Shown in pieces: positions 37,916 to 53,374 of a stretch of DNA of 64,000 nucleotides. The translations under genes and the position numbers were made by a program. The stretch spans positions 16,764-80,763 of the forward strand of contig CAAGLJ010000076.1 of the NCBI GenBank assembly GCA_900770785.1. The letters are read 5' to 3'. The notes under the pieces are model-generated. The model saw nothing but the letters and a program-made list of their open reading frames with translations. It did not search any database and had not been told where the DNA came from. The DNA comes from Lachnospiraceae bacterium. Lineage in GTDB: Bacteria > Bacillota > Clostridia > Lachnospirales > Lachnospiraceae. Each line of letters begins with the position of its first letter. Position 1 is the first letter of the stretch.

Positions 37916-40900
37916 ATGAGAAAGCATTTATTAAAAAGCCTTGCTTTTTTGCTTTTAGGGGTAATGATAAGCCTGGAGTGTTTGTCTGGCTATGCCACAA
38001 TTAACAGTCATGCCGCAGGAAATACACAGAGCAGTTATTATCTGTATCCTTTTGAGGAAGCAGTGGAAGCATTGGAACAGCTGGCCAGTGAGCAGGAGAT
38101 TCAGGCAGCAGTTTATCTGGCAGATGAGGTGAATATGAAGGCTCTGCCGGAAGAAAGCAGTGAGACGGTGAGAGTACTGGCATCCGGTGACGTAGTACGG
38201 ATTATTGGAGTGGGTCAGGATGCAGACTACGGTATATGGTATGAGGCGGTCTTTCAACAGGAAACAGAAAAGGTTGTAGGCTATATCAGCCGTTCCTATC
38301 TGGCCTGTACACAGATCGAATTTATGGAATGGGAAAGTAATTATGTACGAAGTGCAACGGTCTTTCGACGTATGGCACGTGCGGTAAGCTACCCGGATGT
38401 GGAGCAGTTTCCTGAGTCCTATCAGGATGCCTTGTATCAATTAAAGCAGCAGCATCCGAACTGGATTTTTGTCAAAATGAATACGGGAATTTCATGGAAA
38501 ACCTTAGTAAGCAATCAGTTGGGAGAAAGAAGCCTTATTTATGCTCCCACCTCCCCGGATGGATGGAAAAATGGTATGTATGGAACGAATTGGGCCTATG
38601 CTTCTGAGGGGATACTGAAATATTATCTTGATCCAAGAAATTTTTTGGATGATAATGGGATTTTTCAGTTTGAGCTTTTAGGATATTCAGAGGAATATCA
38701 TACTGTGGAAGCAGTTAATCATATTTTAAATGGTACATTCATGTACAATGCCACCATTGAAAATGGAAAAACCTATGCCCAGAATTTCGTGGAGCTGGGA
38801 CAATCCACACAGGTAAGCCCCTTCCTCATGGCATCACGAATCCGACAGGAGCAGGGAGCCCAGGGGAACAGTGCATTAATTTCCGGAACCTATACCGGAT
38901 TTGAAGGCTACTATAACTATTATAATATTGGTGCCAGTGGAAAGACGGACAAAGAGATCATAGAAAGCGGTCTTGCCAGGGCAAAAAAAGAAGGCTGGAA
39001 CAGCCGCTACAAAGCCCTGGAAGCAGGGGCAAATTTTCTGGGAAGCTCATATATCAAGCATGGACAGGATACCCTGTATCTTCAAAAATTTGATGTAGAC
39101 AGTCGTTATGACGGTGTTTTCTGGCATCAATATATGCAAAATATTGAAGCACCCTATAAGGAGAGCTTGTCCGTAAAAAGAGCGTATGAGAAAGCAGGTC
39201 TTATTGACTCAGCCTATATTTTCCGAATACCGGTTTATGAAGGTATGCCTTCTTCTGCCAGTGTACTGCCCGGACAGGAGGATAAGATTACTTTAAGCAG
39301 TACAGAAATTGATAATCTGCAGGTAGATGCACAGGTAACGCTGCACCCCTTTATCAATGGAGAAGAGGCAGAAGGAATAGAATGGGAGTTTATCAGTTCA
39401 GATACTGCCGTTGCTACTGTGGATGCACAGGGGGTAGTAACTGCACTTAAACCGGGAGAAACCCTTATTACCTGTAGAAAAAAAGAGGACATGGACAACA
39501 CCATAGAGGGAACCTGCAGAATTACGGTAATTAAAGCAGATGTGGATATCAGTAAGCTGACCATTCCGCAGCTGGAACCAATCACCTATAATTCCAGGGC
39601 TGTATTAGGCGATATTTCCTTGCCGGAGGGCTACAGCTGGGCAAATCCTGAGTTGGTTCCTACAGTAAAACAGACTGCCTATGCAGTGGAATATAATTTA
39701 GATGACAGCAAGTATAACAGTATTATGCTGGATATTCCTTTAACTGTAAATAAAGCAATTCCTGAGATTACTGTACCCACAGGCTTACAGGGAGGGGCAA
39801 CAAGAGATTTGTCCAGTGTACAGCTGCCTAAGGGCTATTACTGGATGGAGCCTGAAGCAAAGCTACCGGGTACCGTTGGAACGGCGACCTTCCGGGCAGG
39901 TTATAACCCGGATATAGAAAATTATGAATCGGTAGAAAATATTAACCTTACAGTGCAAGTGATTTGTGATAAGCATAATTTTGGTGAATGGCGGATCACA
40001 GAAGCAACCTGTGATGTTGACGGAATAAAGGTAAGAAGCTGTACAATCTGTGGAGAAAAAGAGGAAATTGTTCTTCCGGCCACAGGCCATTCTTATGAAG
40101 CAGAGGTGATAAAGGAGGCTACTGAGAAGCAGGAAGGGGAACGTCTCTATACCTGTGTAAACTGCCGGCACAGCTATACTGAAAGTATTCCCAGATTACC
40201 GGCAAAGCATGAACATAGCTATCAAAAAGAGGTTGTGAAAAAAGCTTCCTGTACAACGGAAGGCCTTCTTAGATACACCTGCAGCTGTGGGGATACCTAT
40301 GAGGAAGTGATTCTGGCTACGGGACACAGTATGAAAGAAGGAAGCTGTACCATATGCGGATACAAGGAGAGCAGCGGTACAGGAACCTCCGGTACTGGAA
40401 GTGTTACAAATCAGGGTGGAAGTACGAACAGCACAAACACGAGTCAGGGAGGAAATACGACTGCCGGGGGAAATACAGGCCAGGGCAGTGGAACGACTTC
40501 TGGTGAGAACACGAATCAGGGGAGTGGTACAGCTTCCGGTGGGAACACGAGCCAGGGAGGAAATACGACTGCCGGGGGAAATACAGGCCAGAGCAGCGGA
40601 ACAACTTCTGGTGGGAACACGAACCAGAACGGGGGTACGACTACTGGAGGTAGTACATCAGGCAATACCAACAGTGGGAACGCATCTGGAAACAGTACAG
40701 CAAATAGTGGAACAGGAGCTGGAAGCACAGGCAGCACCGCAGCAGGAAATACTACAACCAGCCAAAGTACAGGCAGTACCGCAGCAGGAAATACTACAAC
40801 CAGCCAAAGTACAAGCGGTACAACAACGGGAAATGCTGCGACCAGCAAAAACACAGGTACAGCAGAAGGTGCAGCAAACAGTGCAGCCGGAAATACAACA

Positions 40901-41878
40901 GCCCCAGCAGGGAATACTACTTCGGGAAGCACCGGTAATACCAGGGCTGATGTGACAGCTGCGCCAGCCAATGCGGAGGAACAAATCATAGCCGATGCGG
41001 TAAAACAGGTTAAGCAGGAAAATGGCAGCACCGCACCGGCTAAGGAAGAAAAGGTGATTATTGCCTTAAATGGTAACAATACCAGAATTTCGGACAAGGT
41101 TGTGGATACAGCCGTCAGTCATGGAGTAGATTTGGAACTGGAATTACCTAATACATTAGTATGGATAATTGATGCCAGGAGTCTTACTGGAGCCCTGACT
41201 GGTGAAATTGACATGGATGCCCGGTTTATAGAGGGAATTCTGGACAGGAAATGGATTGAAGCTACAGCAAAAGGAAGAGATTATCTTGAACTACAGCTGG
41301 CTCATACTGGAGATTTTGGCTTTACGGCAGACCTTATTATACCGGTAGAGGAAAAATATATTGGAAAAACGGCAAATCTGTTCTACTTTAATGAAGAAAC
41401 AGGAATGCTGGAATTTCAGATGGCGTCTGGAGTAAGTGAAGAGGCGGAGGTGATTTTTACCTTTACTCATGCATCAGATTATCTGATCGTCTTTGCAGAT
41501 GGCTCTATGGCAGAGGAAACTTTTCCTGCAAATACTCAGGAAATAGAAGTTTCTGAGGATGCATCAGCTGTGACTGGAACAGTAGAAAAAGAAGAAAATA
41601 ATTCTTTGAAGATACTGGTGCTTATTACCCTGATTATTATGCTGTTAGCAGTATTTCCCGTAATTTGGGGGCTTTGGCTAAATCACAGGAAACAGGATAA
41701 AATATATAATGACCAAAAAGAAGAAATATCTGACGGAGAAGAGGACTTTTTTCAGGAGCTTGCAGCCAGTGCCAGAAAGGAGATTAGGGAAGAGAAAAAA
41801 AGACAGGAAGAAAAGAAAAGTCTCAGTGAAGATGAGTACTTTGATGAGGATGTAGATGACTACCGGGAGCGTTCTTAG
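37916..41878 (+). CDS. large cell-surface protein. Contains a signal peptide, SH3b-like domain, putative peptidoglycan-hydrolase-like domain (tentative glucosaminidase-type), Ig-like Big_2 repeats, Cys-rich CxxCG...ATGHS repeats, about 190-aa Gly/Thr/Ser/Asn low-complexity linker, C-terminal TM anchor and acidic tail.
   Basis: N-terminal signal-like hydrophobic segment. Repeated LP(E/K)GYxWxxPE and CTICG/CSCG...ATGHS units. Tandem nucleotide repeats at 40380-40960. C-terminal ILVLITLIIMLLAVFPVIWGLWL helix followed by a charged tail. Confidence 0.8.
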   Translation: MRKHLLKSLAFLLLGVMISLECLSGYATINSHAAGNTQSSYYLYPFEEAVEALEQLASEQEIQAAVYLADEVNMKALPEESSETVRVLASGDVVRIIGVGQDADYGIWYEAVFQQETEKVVGYISRSYLACTQIEFMEWESNYVRSATVFRRMARAVSYPDVEQFPESYQDALYQLKQQHPNWIFVKMNTGISWKTLVSNQLGERSLIYAPTSPDGWKNGMYGTNWAYASEGILKYYLDPRNFLDDNGIFQFELLGYSEEYHTVEAVNHILNGTFMYNATIENGKTYAQNFVELGQSTQVSPFLMASRIRQEQGAQGNSALISGTYTGFEGYYNYYNIGASGKTDKEIIESGLARAKKEGWNSRYKALEAGANFLGSSYIKHGQDTLYLQKFDVDSRYDGVFWHQYMQNIEAPYKESLSVKRAYEKAGLIDSAYIFRIPVYEGMPSSASVLPGQEDKITLSSTEIDNLQVDAQVTLHPFINGEEAEGIEWEFISSDTAVATVDAQGVVTALKPGETLITCRKKEDMDNTIEGTCRITVIKADVDISKLTIPQLEPITYNSRAVLGDISLPEGYSWANPELVPTVKQTAYAVEYNLDDSKYNSIMLDIPLTVNKAIPEITVPTGLQGGATRDLSSVQLPKGYYWMEPEAKLPGTVGTATFRAGYNPDIENYESVENINLTVQVICDKHNFGEWRITEATCDVDGIKVRSCTICGEKEEIVLPATGHSYEAEVIKEATEKQEGERLYTCVNCRHSYTESIPRLPAKHEHSYQKEVVKKASCTTEGLLRYTCSCGDTYEEVILATGHSMKEGSCTICGYKESSGTGTSGTGSVTNQGGSTNSTNTSQGGNTTAGGNTGQGSGTTSGENTNQGSGTASGGNTSQGGNTTAGGNTGQSSGTTSGGNTNQNGGTTTGGSTSGNTNSGNASGNSTANSGTGAGSTGSTAAGNTTTSQSTGSTAAGNTTTSQSTSGTTTGNAATSKNTGTAEGAANSAAGNTTAPAGNTTSGSTGNTRADVTAAPANAEEQIIADAVKQVKQENGSTAPAKEEKVIIALNGNNTRISDKVVDTAVSHGVDLELELPNTLVWIIDARSLTGALTGEIDMDARFIEGILDRKWIEATAKGRDYLELQLAHTGDFGFTADLIIPVEEKYIGKTANLFYFNEETGMLEFQMASGVSEEAEVIFTFTHASDYLIVFADGSMAEETFPANTQEIEVSEDASAVTGTVEKEENNSLKILVLITLIIMLLAVFPVIWGLWLNHRKQDKIYNDQKEEISDGEEDFFQELAASARKEIREEKKRQEEKKSLSEDEYFDEDVDDYRERS
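40380..40960 (+). repeat. in-frame tandem nucleotide repeats (period about 113 bp, plus 39-bp units) encoding the GGNT/SGTT low-complexity linker
   Basis: Near-identical copies, e.g. CAGGGAGGAAATACGACTGCCGGGGGAAATACAGGCCAG at 40440 and 40553, and ACCGCAGCAGGAAATACTACAACCAGCCAAAGTACA at 40738 and 40777. Confidence 0.8.
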
Positions 41879-50723: not shown

Positions 50724-52472
50724 ATGAATAATGTAAAAGCAGGAACTTTGTGCATTTGCACAAGGTTCTTGTTTATTACAGATATGTGCAGAAAGAGGGA
50801 GGTGGACAGATATTTGTTTATTACAGGAATAATAGTGCTGCTGATTCTGGCTGTATTTTATCGTGGAGTAATGGAGGAAAAGAAAAAACACATTAACTTA
50901 AGAAAAACTTTACAGGAAGGGTATGGTAAAGTAAACGAAAGAAAATGGCAGCCAGGGGAGTTGGAGCGGATTTCTTTTTATGGTAAAAGAGGGAATGAAG
51001 CTATGAGTATCGACAGCCAGACCTGGAATGATCTGGATATGGATGAAGTATTTAAGCAGATGGCCTATACCGGCTCTTCTCTGGGAGACGATTATTTGTA
51101 TGCTCTGCTTCATCAGTCTGGAAAGAGTGTGGAAGAACTAAAACGGCTGGAAGAAAAAATTGCTTTTTACCAGACAAGGGAAAAAGAAAGACTGGATTTA
51201 CAGCTTCTTTTTATTGAACTTGGCAGAATGAAAAAATATTCTCTTTCTCAATACCTGGATTATATGGAAGAAAAAAAGGCTGAGGGAAATGGAAAGCATC
51301 ATCTGGGTAATATCTTATTGCTGCTCTCCCCTTTACTCATGTTTTTTTCTGCCGGTATTGGCCTGTCTGCCTTTTTTCTTTGTCTCTTTATTAATGTATA
51401 TACGTATTTTAAAAATAAAGCAGATATGGAAGCCTATCTGGTTAGCTTTCGCTATATTCTTACCATGCTGGACATGGCCGAAAGAATAGAAAAGCGGTTA
51501 GACCCAGTATGGAACACAGATAAGGAAAGCCTTAGAGAAGTCATAAGTATTTTTCAGGGATTTCGCAAAAATTCCTTTCTTCTCATGTCCCGGGGGAGAA
51601 TGGCAGGACAGGGAGTTGAATTGATCCTGGACTATCTCAGGATGTGTTTCCATCTGGATATGATCAAGTTTAACTCCATGCTTTTGCAGCTTCAAAAGGA
51701 TATGAAACAGGTCTGGAAAATTTATGAGCTTTTAGGGGAATTGGACAGTTGTCTTGCCATAGGTGCCTACCGTGCTTATTTACCGGTATATTGTATTCCG
51801 GATTTTTGGAAAAAAAAGGAAATGGATATGGTGGAAGGATATCATCCCCTGCTAAAGAAGGCAGTAAGTAATTCTCTGCATATGGAAAAGAATATTCTGC
51901 TGACGGGTTCCAATGCCTCTGGAAAATCCACCTTTTTAAAGACTATTGGGCTGAATGTTCTCCTTGCCCAGACCATTCATACCTGTACAGCAAAGAACTT
52001 TAGGCTTCCTTTATGCAGGCTGTATACCTCGCTGTCCTTAAAGGACAGTCTGTTTAAGCAGGAAAGCTATTATATGGCAGAGATTAAGGCCATTAAAAGA
52101 ATTTTGGATTCGGCAGCCGGGGGAGGACAGGTAGTCTGCATGGTAGATGAGGTTTTACGAGGAACCAACACCAGGGAGAGGATTGCCGCATCTGCACAGA
52201 TTCTGTTAAAGATGTATAGAATGGGGATACTTTGTCTTGCGGCTACTCACGACAGGGAATTAACTGAAATATTGGAAGGGGAATACGAGAATTATCATTT
52301 TCAGGAGGAACTGGCAGGAGGAGATGTAAAATTTTCCTATCGGCTTAAGTCTGGAAGAGCAGACAGCAGTAATGCCATAGGGCTTTTGGAAGAGCTGGGC
52401 TATGGCAGTGAGGTAACGGTGGGCGCACGCCGGATGATAGAAGAATTCGAGAAAAAGGGAGAGTGGAAATGA
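50724..52472 (+). CDS. MutS-domain (domains III + V) ABC-type ATPase with internal transmembrane helices, not a canonical MutS1/MutS2
   Basis: Walker A GSNASGKSTFLKTIG, ABC signature/Walker B VVCMVDEVLRGTNTRER, H-loop AATHD. Hydrophobic helices at about aa 30-46 and 195-225. No mismatch-binding or Smr domain. Confidence 0.75.
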   Translation: MNNVKAGTLCICTRFLFITDMCRKREVDRYLFITGIIVLLILAVFYRGVMEEKKKHINLRKTLQEGYGKVNERKWQPGELERISFYGKRGNEAMSIDSQTWNDLDMDEVFKQMAYTGSSLGDDYLYALLHQSGKSVEELKRLEEKIAFYQTREKERLDLQLLFIELGRMKKYSLSQYLDYMEEKKAEGNGKHHLGNILLLLSPLLMFFSAGIGLSAFFLCLFINVYTYFKNKADMEAYLVSFRYILTMLDMAERIEKRLDPVWNTDKESLREVISIFQGFRKNSFLLMSRGRMAGQGVELILDYLRMCFHLDMIKFNSMLLQLQKDMKQVWKIYELLGELDSCLAIGAYRAYLPVYCIPDFWKKKEMDMVEGYHPLLKKAVSNSLHMEKNILLTGSNASGKSTFLKTIGLNVLLAQTIHTCTAKNFRLPLCRLYTSLSLKDSLFKQESYYMAEIKAIKRILDSAAGGGQVVCMVDEVLRGTNTRERIAASAQILLKMYRMGILCLAATHDRELTEILEGEYENYHFQEELAGGDVKFSYRLKSGRADSSNAIGLLEELGYGSEVTVGARRMIEEFEKKGEWK

Positions 52473-52945
52473 AGGTAACGATTTATACGGACGGGGCAGC
52501 AAGAGGAAATCCTGATGGGCCTGGAGGATATGGCTGTGTACTTCATTACATGGATACTCAGGGAAAACTCCATGTGAGAGAATTTTCCGCCGGCTATAAA
52601 AAGACTACCAATAACCGGATGGAAATGCTGGCAGTAATTGTGGGGCTGGAGGCCTTAACAAAGCCCTGTCAGGTAACGGTAGTGTCGGACTCAAAATATG
52701 TAACCGATGCCTTCAATCAGCACTGGTTGGAAAACTGGCAGAAGAATCAGTGGAAAACCAGTACCAGAAAGCCGGTAAAGAACAAGATGCTGTGGCTGCG
52801 TATGCTAAAGGCTATGGAGCCGCATCAGGTGAGCTTTACCTGGATTAAGGGGCATGCCGGACATCCGGAAAATGAACGCTGTGACCAGCTGGCAACGAGT
52901 GCAGCGGATGGTACGGATCTGCTGGAGGATGATCTGGGCGATTAG
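52469..52945 (+). CDS. rnhA: ribonuclease HI
   Basis: RNase H fold with catalytic DEDD residues (TDGAARGNPDGPGGYG, RMEMLAV, DSKYV, WIKGHAGHPENERCDQLA). The ATG overlaps the stop of the upstream gene (ATGA). Confidence 0.85.
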   Translation: MKVTIYTDGAARGNPDGPGGYGCVLHYMDTQGKLHVREFSAGYKKTTNNRMEMLAVIVGLEALTKPCQVTVVSDSKYVTDAFNQHWLENWQKNQWKTSTRKPVKNKMLWLRMLKAMEPHQVSFTWIKGHAGHPENERCDQLATSAADGTDLLEDDLGD

Positions 52946-53065: not shown

Positions 53066-53227
53066 ATGGCAAACTTAATTGCTTTTTTAAATGTATTTTG
53101 TTCCTATTTGTTATTATTCGGTATTATCGGTGTTCTCGCTGTTGTGGCAGTTTTTATTGGGATCAGACTGAGGAAGAATAAGGATTTAAAGGATGCTTCC
53201 GGTAAGTCTTTGGCGGATAATGTATAA
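53066..53227 (+). CDS. small hydrophobic protein (53 aa, single TM) upstream of nrdD
   Basis: ATG with a GGTGAGG RBS, product MANLIAFLNVFCSYLLLFGIIGVLAVVAVFIGIRLRKNKDLKDASGKSLADNV, followed by a hairpin/T-run. It is below the ORF-track cutoff. Confidence 0.35.
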   Translation: MANLIAFLNVFCSYLLLFGIIGVLAVVAVFIGIRLRKNKDLKDASGKSLADNV

Positions 53228-53256
53228 TTGAACAGAGAGCAACAGACTGAATAGAG

Positions 53257-53293
53257 GAATGGCTATTACGAGCAGAATGGCCATTCTTTTTTT
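53257..53293 (+). terminator. hairpin + T-run terminator after the small ORF
   Basis: GAATGGC ... GCCATTC stem (inner palindrome AGAATGGCCATTCT) followed by TTTTTTT. Confidence 0.5.
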
Positions 53294-53318: not shown

Positions 53319-53347
53319 TTGACAGATGAGGAGAGGACGGCTATACT
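53319..53347 (+). promoter_or_regulatory. sigma-A promoter for nrdDG (TTGACA, 17 nt, TATACT)
   Basis: Exact consensus hexamers at 53319-53324 and 53342-53347 with a 17-nt spacer. Confidence 0.6.
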
Positions 53348-53357
53348 AGTAAATACA

Positions 53358-53374
53358 CCACAATATCTTGTGAT
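53358..53374 (+). promoter_or_regulatory. candidate NrdR box (ccACAATATCTTGTGat) immediately downstream of the -10
   Basis: Near-palindrome CACAATATCTTGTG resembles the NrdR-box consensus acaCwAtATaTwGtgt found upstream of nrd operons. Confidence 0.4.

Follow-up and report, generated by a model that had tools for sequence, protein, structure and literature searches.

A MutS-family ATPase gene with predicted membrane anchors precedes rnhA in a conserved gene block of Lachnospiraceae

The stretch of DNA analyzed here (hereafter, the window) comprises 64,000 nucleotides from an uncultured Lachnospiraceae bacterium (contig CAAGLJ010000076.1, positions 16,764 to 80,763). It harbors a gene for a MutS-family ATPase, which we call MutSL, followed by rnhA, the gene for ribonuclease (RNase) HI. 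An earlier note on this DNA, made from the sequence alone, had described two open reading frames (ORFs), one of 582 amino acids (aa) and one encoding a complete RNase HI of 158 aa, joined by an ATGA stop/start overlap; both ORFs, their coordinates and the overlap were confirmed (Table 1). That note had missed the third gene of the unit, an ORF for a 53-aa membrane protein situated behind rnhA. An intrinsic terminator follows this small ORF, with a predicted folding energy of -21.9 kcal/mol (z = -3.6), and none of 200 shuffled sequences folded equally well. On one and the same strand, the genes SpoIVA, XpaC-like, TelA, PNP, amidohydrolase and xanthine/uracil permease precede MutSL, while RNase HI, the small ORF, NrdD, NrdG, dUTPase and DegV come after it.

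Table 1. Features of the MutSL-rnhA unit and of the adjoining nrdD side, in window coordinates
Feature	Coordinates	Strand	Details
MutSL, longest ORF	50724..52472	+	582 aa from ATG 50724
MutSL, membrane-anchored MutS-family (MutS3-like) ATPase	50814..52472	+	552 aa from TTG 50814 (likely start)
Shine-Dalgarno sequence of rnhA	52457-52461	+	GGGAG, within the MutSL 3' end, 5 nt upstream of rnhA
ATGA stop/start overlap MutSL/rnhA	52469..52472	+	TGA 52470-52472 over ATG 52469-52471
rnhA, complete E. coli-type RNase HI	52469..52945	+	158 aa from ATG; identified by Pfam, NCBIfam and alignment
ORF for 53-aa single-pass membrane protein	53066..53227	+	MANLIAFLNVFCSYLLLF…RLRKNKD…; Shine-Dalgarno-like GGTGAGGA upstream
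Intrinsic terminator hairpin	53253..53293	+	U7 tail; closes the MutSL-rnhA-small-ORF unit
nrdD promoter	53319-53347	+	TTGACA-17-TATACT, 11/12 match; near-consensus, nrdD's own

With regard to the second gene, the rnhA product scored 199.4 bits against the RNase HI equivalog model NF001236 (cutoff, 160) and 157 bits against the Pfam family RNase_H. Its alignment with E. coli RNase HI runs over the full length at approximately 50% identity, and the motifs TDG, NNRME, SDS, KGHAGH and NERCD, with all the catalytic residues (D/E/D/H/D), as well as the basic protrusion (WKT..KPVKN), are conserved in this alignment. To judge from these scores and motifs, it is an ordinary RNase HI of the housekeeping type, an enzyme that clears RNA out of RNA:DNA hybrids. 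The E. coli rnhA gene stands singly and divergent from dnaQ, whereas the gene in the window comes second in a MutS-paralog operon and is translationally coupled to the gene before it. No second RNase H gene, mutS or mutL was found within the 64-kb window.

A scan of one genome per Genome Taxonomy Database (GTDB) species yielded 80 MutSL loci, nearly all from Lachnospiraceae or its genera, against which the window neighbors were compared by tblastn. The block PNP-(cdd)-amidohydrolase-(permease)-MutSL-(rnhA)-(HAD/WYL/aminotransferase)-nrdD-nrdG-dut, in which parentheses denote genes that are not always present, was recovered in nearly all of the 80 species, with MutSL as a constant member, and SpoIVA lies upstream of MutSL in many other loci as it does in the window. 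The interval between MutSL and nrdD varies within the family and holds RNase HI, a HAD hydrolase, a WYL-WCX regulator and an aminotransferase in differing combinations. GC content and GC at third codon positions of MutSL and rnhA are ordinary, with no compositional anomaly. The location of the pair is one of core-genome synteny and not an insertion hotspot for MutSL. The accessory insertion between purine salvage and nrdDG that the earlier note had suggested was therefore not borne out, given this family-wide syntenic block, the ordinary composition and the near absence from viral contigs. As regards the variable positions, the HAD hydrolase, WYL-WCX regulator and aminotransferase genes precede nrdD, behind rnhA or the small ORF, in loci L081-L086, L109-L112 and many of L001-L080, but none of them is present in the window. 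Many relatives also have a cytidine deaminase gene between PNP and the amidohydrolase gene, a position at which the window has none.

Within this block, rnhA is the next gene after MutSL in 37 of the 80 species. Cultured relatives with the pair include Lachnospiraceae bacterium G11 and Butyrivibrio sp. CB08 (loci L015 and L066). In the remaining 43, no RNase HI gene was found within the 0.7-6 kb available, and the next genes of the block directly follow MutSL. In a neighbor-joining tree of MutSL, the species devoid of rnhA fall mostly into two large clades, together with scattered cases, and the deepest branches include species that carry the pair; because of this clustering and of these deep branches, the pairing is probably ancestral and would have been lost several times. 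Overlaps of 4 nt such as this ATGA are frequent at operon junctions and by themselves unremarkable. Among the 37 orthologous junctions, eight overlap and all but one (36/37) span at most 132 nt. A divergent group of MutSL proteins (35-41% identical) was found in a second context, der-plsY-gpsA-SpoIVA-NlpC/P60-MutSL-RNase HI-MutS-MutL-MiaA, so the pair has been retained while the genes around it were rearranged. Conversely, all five RNase HI orthologs that were looked up on long contigs (74-78% identical) lie directly behind a MutS_V gene.

The two proteins differ markedly in their rate of change. Orthologs of RNase HI are 74-99% identical and those of MutSL 35-60%, with mean pairwise distances of 0.29 and 0.94, respectively, compared to 0.14 for NrdD. 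By these measures, rnhA behaves like a slow-evolving housekeeping enzyme and MutSL evolves fast. The co-localization of the two genes in related genomes, which the earlier note had proposed to check, thus held in part: rnhA is adjacent in 37 of the 80 species and again in the mutS-mutL context, but not in the other 43 species or in relatives from outside the family. A required partnership does not agree with the persistence of MutSL without rnhA in those 43 species and in all non-Lachnospiraceae relatives examined. With regard to the alternative offered in the same note, of a housekeeping rnhA fortuitously placed, the housekeeping part fits the sequence evidence best, whereas "fortuitously placed" is too weak for a placement that is ancient and conserved.

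The small ORF accompanies MutSL more faithfully than rnhA does. In a profile search, its homologs were found directly after rnhA, or after MutSL where rnhA is absent, at 76 of 112 loci. Counted by GTDB species, they are present in 65 of 80, namely in 29 of the 37 with rnhA and in 36 of the 43 without it. The same search did not find the small ORF in loci of the mutS-mutL context. The 53-aa protein itself showed no family match above threshold and no double-glycine leader. The conserved unit of the majority clade consists of MutSL, optionally rnhA, and the small membrane protein, with a terminator at the end.

Turning to MutSL itself, its start is likely TTG 50814, preceded by GGAGG 11 nt upstream, since homologs begin around 30 residues after the first ATG of the ORF, as do near-identical proteins from metagenome-assembled genomes (MAGs), annotated by NCBI as a 552-aa "hypothetical protein". 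The sole Pfam domain is MutS_V (PF00488; aa 391-575, E = 7e-26, 91.8 bits against a cutoff of 30.2). The Pfam scan gave no match to MutS_I (PF01624), MutS_II, MutS_IV (PF05190) or Smr in this protein, whereas the same kind of scan recovered all five domains in canonical MutS proteins of related genomes. These results and the hydropathy analysis agree with the earlier description of a MutS core/ATPase protein with transmembrane (TM) helices and without mismatch-recognition, clamp or Smr domains. Scores against the NCBIfam models for MutS (NF003810, 118 bits, cutoff 480; TIGR01070, 99.1 bits, cutoff 641.7), MutS2 (TIGR01069, 83.5 bits, cutoff 400) and the KamC reactivase ATPase (NF052383, 69.5 bits, cutoff 300) came from matches restricted to the C-terminal ~260 residues. 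MutSL was ruled out as a MutS1, MutS2 or KamC protein, with scores far below the cutoffs and the defining domains missing.

The ATPase motifs of domain V are nevertheless complete. The Walker A sequence GSNASGKST, the Walker B residues D475-E476, S448-Y449-Y450…E453 and T508-H509-D510 are invariant in 18 MutSL homologs, and the ATPase motifs are likewise invariant across 60 homologs. With respect to the motifs named in the earlier note, Walker A and THD stood, while VDEVLRGT is not an ABC signature and corresponds to Walker B and the GT(N)T motif of MutS. By these motifs and its MutS fold, MutSL belongs to the MutS family in a broad sense. MutS proteins all work as ATP-driven dimers, and since its ATPase motifs are intact, MutSL is probably an active ATPase that dimerizes in the same way. 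The two domains with which MutS contacts DNA, I and IV, are absent from MutSL, which makes a role in scanning DNA for mismatches unlikely.

Hydropathy analysis predicted an N-terminal TM helix at approximately aa 31-48 and a TM hairpin at approximately aa 194-232, that is, three TM helices, in agreement with long helices in an AlphaFold2 model. Under the positive-inside rule, the soluble parts would all be cytoplasmic. The target of MutSL might lie at or in the membrane, and might perhaps be handled jointly with the 53-aa membrane protein.

The AlphaFold2 model, built for 551 residues from a 60-sequence alignment, had a mean pLDDT of 86.7 and a pTM of 0.84. Its top Foldseek matches in the Protein Data Bank (PDB) were MutS structures (E = 5e-17, TM-score 0.55-0.60), with around 540 aligned columns covering nearly the whole model. 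When the MutSL family profile was aligned with canonical MutS by hhalign, the alignment was significant for domain V alone. Several homologs gave sub-threshold Pfam MutS_III matches that begin at an invariant I-D-x-x-T-W-N-D-L-D motif, one of them extending over residues 80-318 and hence across the TM hairpin, and a forced hhalign alignment of the N-terminal part with MutS showed the same register, at a non-significant E = 0.38. Taken together, the model suggests the layout TM1, linker, N-terminal part of domain III, TM hairpin, C-terminal part of domain III and domain V, the ATPase being followed by a C-terminal helix pair. The hairpin appears to be placed where the clamp domain IV nests in canonical MutS, a mapping onto MutS that draws on the sub-threshold MutS_III matches and the global Foldseek match.

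When compared with canonical MutS1 (E. coli/Taq; 1E3M, 1EWQ, 7OTO), MutSL shares the Walker A and B motifs, the S-x-x…E motif and the His loop of domain V, the C-terminal helix pair, and a fold of domains III and V that superposes in Foldseek. It differs in the absence of domains I, II and IV and in its three TM helices. MutS2/RqcU, which acts on ribosome collisions, and KamC, which acts in enzyme reactivation, are examples of a MutS ATPase core put to non-mismatch use. MutSL resembles both in having a domain III/V core without domain I, but it lacks Smr and KOW domains and scores far below their cutoffs; to our knowledge, neither MutS2 nor KamC is membrane-anchored. A closer description is that of MutS3, whose members carry a C-terminal MutSac (domain V) and at most a remnant of MutSd (domain III), have neither MutS-I nor MutS-II, show a patchy distribution that includes Staphylococcus and Bacteroidetes, and were functionally unstudied (Lin, Nei and Ma 2007, PMC2190696). 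MutSL resembles them in its domain V near the C-terminus, an optional domain III and the lack of domains I and II, as well as in the occurrence of full-length relatives in Staphylococcus and Bacteroidota; in contrast, TM helices, an association with RNase HI and a small membrane partner are not mentioned in that paper. By domain description, MutSL therefore fits the uncharacterized MutS3 type. Our literature search found no paper on a membrane-anchored MutS paralog or on a MutS-RNase HI operon.

The family extends well beyond the Lachnospiraceae. In a library clustered at 50%, 17,425 representatives matched at E ≤ 1e-3 and 1,551 at E ≤ 1e-30. Full-length relatives with 26-33% identity over 94-99% of the protein were identified in C. 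perfringens, C. taeniosporum, C. estertheticum, Ruminococcus albus, Subdoligranulum, Staphylococcus and Bacteroidota, and many of them are plasmid-borne. No RNase H gene was found beside the full-length relatives examined in C. perfringens, C. taeniosporum, C. estertheticum, R. albus, Staphylococcus and Spirosoma, which argues that MutSL is independent of RNase HI, and among the taxa examined the pairing is a feature of Lachnospiraceae. L. phytofermentans ISDg carries the MutSL gene alone, in yet another context. Members of a more distant clade (32-34% identical) have the TM hairpin and lack the N-terminal TM helix; they reside in unrelated contexts, sometimes beside prophage ends, and never with RNase HI nearby. 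At two loci of this clade (L091, 2642-6968; L092, 2759-5110), the gene adjoins prophage ends with serine recombinases, or with HNH and terminase large subunit genes. Such positions explain the appearance of the family in "viral" contig collections, where our scan of 2.9 million contigs returned seven matches, which look like host flanks.

A 12-kb C. perfringens plasmid (NZ_CP075915.1; locus L113, 1-5514) encodes a full-length homolog with 33% identity and the same TM layout, flanked by a C39-peptidase ABC exporter/HlyD pair and a gene for a double-glycine class II bacteriocin, a context suggesting that the family might have a role related to membranes or peptides. Homologs were present in 13 Staphylococcus plasmid records, and on S. 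epidermidis plasmids (L117, 5971-7924; L122, 3971-5924) the homolog is followed by a 58-aa ORF of the same kind with two TM helices. A DUF2798 protein gene follows the homolog in C. estertheticum, and a GT39 glycosyltransferase gene in C. taeniosporum. Many other neighborhoods showed no common theme. As a separate observation, record MT880872.1, labeled "Staphylococcus phage PhiSepi-HH3" (locus L115, 1-11527), has rex, yheS, tsaD-rimI-tsaB-tsaE and ilvD around its MutSL homolog; this stretch looks like host chromosomal DNA, with the homolog between yheS and tsaD.

Concerning transcription signals in the window, the earlier note had assumed a single promoter for the pair, which could not be verified: no sigma-70-like promoter was found upstream of MutSL, and nrdD has a promoter of its own. 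MutSL may be co-transcribed with the purine-salvage genes. Past the nrdD promoter, at ~53357-53373, lies the imperfect palindrome ACCACAATATCTTGTGA, a candidate NrdR box by its resemblance to the consensus. A search with Rfam models at gathering thresholds over window positions 44-58 kb found no regulatory RNA around MutSL-rnhA. Elsewhere in the window, a 1320-aa ORF on the plus strand (37916-41878) had no Pfam match at E ≤ 1e-5, and part of it (40000-40999) shows a raised GC content of 0.51 and a very strong AT skew of 0.39.

The reading we favor, with moderate confidence, is that MutSL, rnhA and the gene for the 53-aa membrane protein form a vertically inherited core operon of Lachnospiraceae whose genes are co-expressed, and not a defense system. 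The operon would run MutSL, rnhA, small membrane protein gene and terminator. Its first product would be a MutS paralog that keeps domains III and V and is tethered to the membrane by the N-terminal TM helix and the TM hairpin. An early ancestor of the family would already have carried rnhA as the translationally coupled second gene, with later loss in several clades. The neighborhood would be one of DNA maintenance and nucleotide metabolism, with either mutS-mutL or nrdDG-dut downstream, and the coupling of MutSL to rnhA would amount to co-expression; a direct partnership between MutSL and RNase HI is conceivable. Several findings weigh against this interpretation. The pair has outlasted several rearrangements with short or overlapping junctions, beyond what synteny by descent requires, and MutSL is attached to every rnhA ortholog sampled. 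Pairwise distances of MutSL and RNase HI are correlated (r = 0.46, Mantel p ~5e-4) more strongly than those of either protein with NrdD or PNP (r = 0.20-0.26), although physical linkage alone could cause such a correlation. The position of the pair directly upstream of mutS-mutL in some lineages argues for a DNA-related and not a membrane-related role of MutSL, and the mapping of the hairpin onto the clamp comes from sub-threshold profile matches and the non-significant hhalign alignment, not from a residue-level structural alignment.

The survival of rearrangements, the constant attachment of rnhA and the higher distance correlation favor a functional link between the two proteins. Under such a link, MutSL, RNase HI and perhaps the small protein would make up a device for housekeeping genome maintenance that is confined to Lachnospiraceae, in which MutSL recognizes or holds DNA containing RNA:DNA hybrids near the membrane and recruits or activates RNase HI, be it at sites of coupled transcription-translation-insertion or in replication or repair. 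The retention of the pair in at least two unrelated downstream and several upstream contexts, while MutSL diverged to ~35-40% identity, would fit this device, as would its place beside mutS-mutL in some lineages and beside nrdDG-dut in the window. We nonetheless consider it rather unlikely, given that MutSL occurs without rnhA in more than half of the species and everywhere examined outside the family, and that it lacks both DNA-binding domains of MutS. Alternatively, MutSL and the small hydrophobic protein could serve in peptide or bacteriocin immunity, export or envelope stress, with rnhA as an inserted passenger. The presence of the small ORF behind MutSL regardless of rnhA, the three TM helices, the fast evolution of MutSL and the clostridial and staphylococcal neighbors described above agree with such a role. 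Yet the bacteriocin context is that of a single plasmid type, the small proteins of different taxa are not demonstrably homologous, and the Lachnospiraceae peptide has neither a double-glycine leader nor a family match; moreover, the small ORF is missing from lineages in which mutS-mutL follows the pair, and many other neighborhoods share no theme, so that we regard this explanation as improbable. Finally, the earlier note had likened the pair to two-gene ATPase-plus-nuclease systems against phages or plasmids (Septu, Gabija or Lamassu), with RNase HI as an effector against RNA:DNA hybrids. The likeness to Septu PtuAB, Gabija GajAB and Lamassu is a superficial one of layout, with a nuclease gene placed behind an ABC/P-loop ATPase gene, even if the translationally coupled ATPase-plus-nuclease pair is real, MutSL evolves fast, and its relatives occur on plasmids or, among distant ones, at prophage borders. 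The best PADLOC match of MutSL reached 21.8 bits over ~40 residues at the P-loop, and RNase HI had none. Throughout a bacterial family, the locus keeps a fixed core-genome position amid housekeeping genes, the supposed effector is a slow-evolving rnhA equivalog, and the presumed sensor is kept without it in half of the species. A defense system at this locus, which we hold to be highly improbable, was rejected on the results from PADLOC, the viral-contig scan with its host flanks, the tblastn searches of phages and plasmids, and the composition.

With the core-operon reading preferred, the value of the locus lies in an unexplained, ancient linkage of MutSL to rnhA and in the unusual architecture of a membrane-anchored MutS protein, and not in a candidate for defense. 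Proteins of this type are usually annotated as "hypothetical" or, misleadingly, as "DNA mismatch repair protein MutS", and the latter label should be avoided. The family-wide operon ties a very common, uncharacterized MutS paralog to RNase HI in Lachnospiraceae, a family of dominant gut bacteria in whose sampled lineages no RNase HI turned up other than behind MutSL. It is conceivable, if quite improbable in our view, that MutSL, with its clamp swapped for a membrane hairpin, would form together with RNase HI and the 53-aa protein a hitherto unrecognized membrane-anchored module that watches for RNA:DNA hybrids, or for some other nucleic-acid structure, at the cell membrane; the MutS ATPase core would then have taken on a third type of task in addition to mismatch repair and ribosome rescue.

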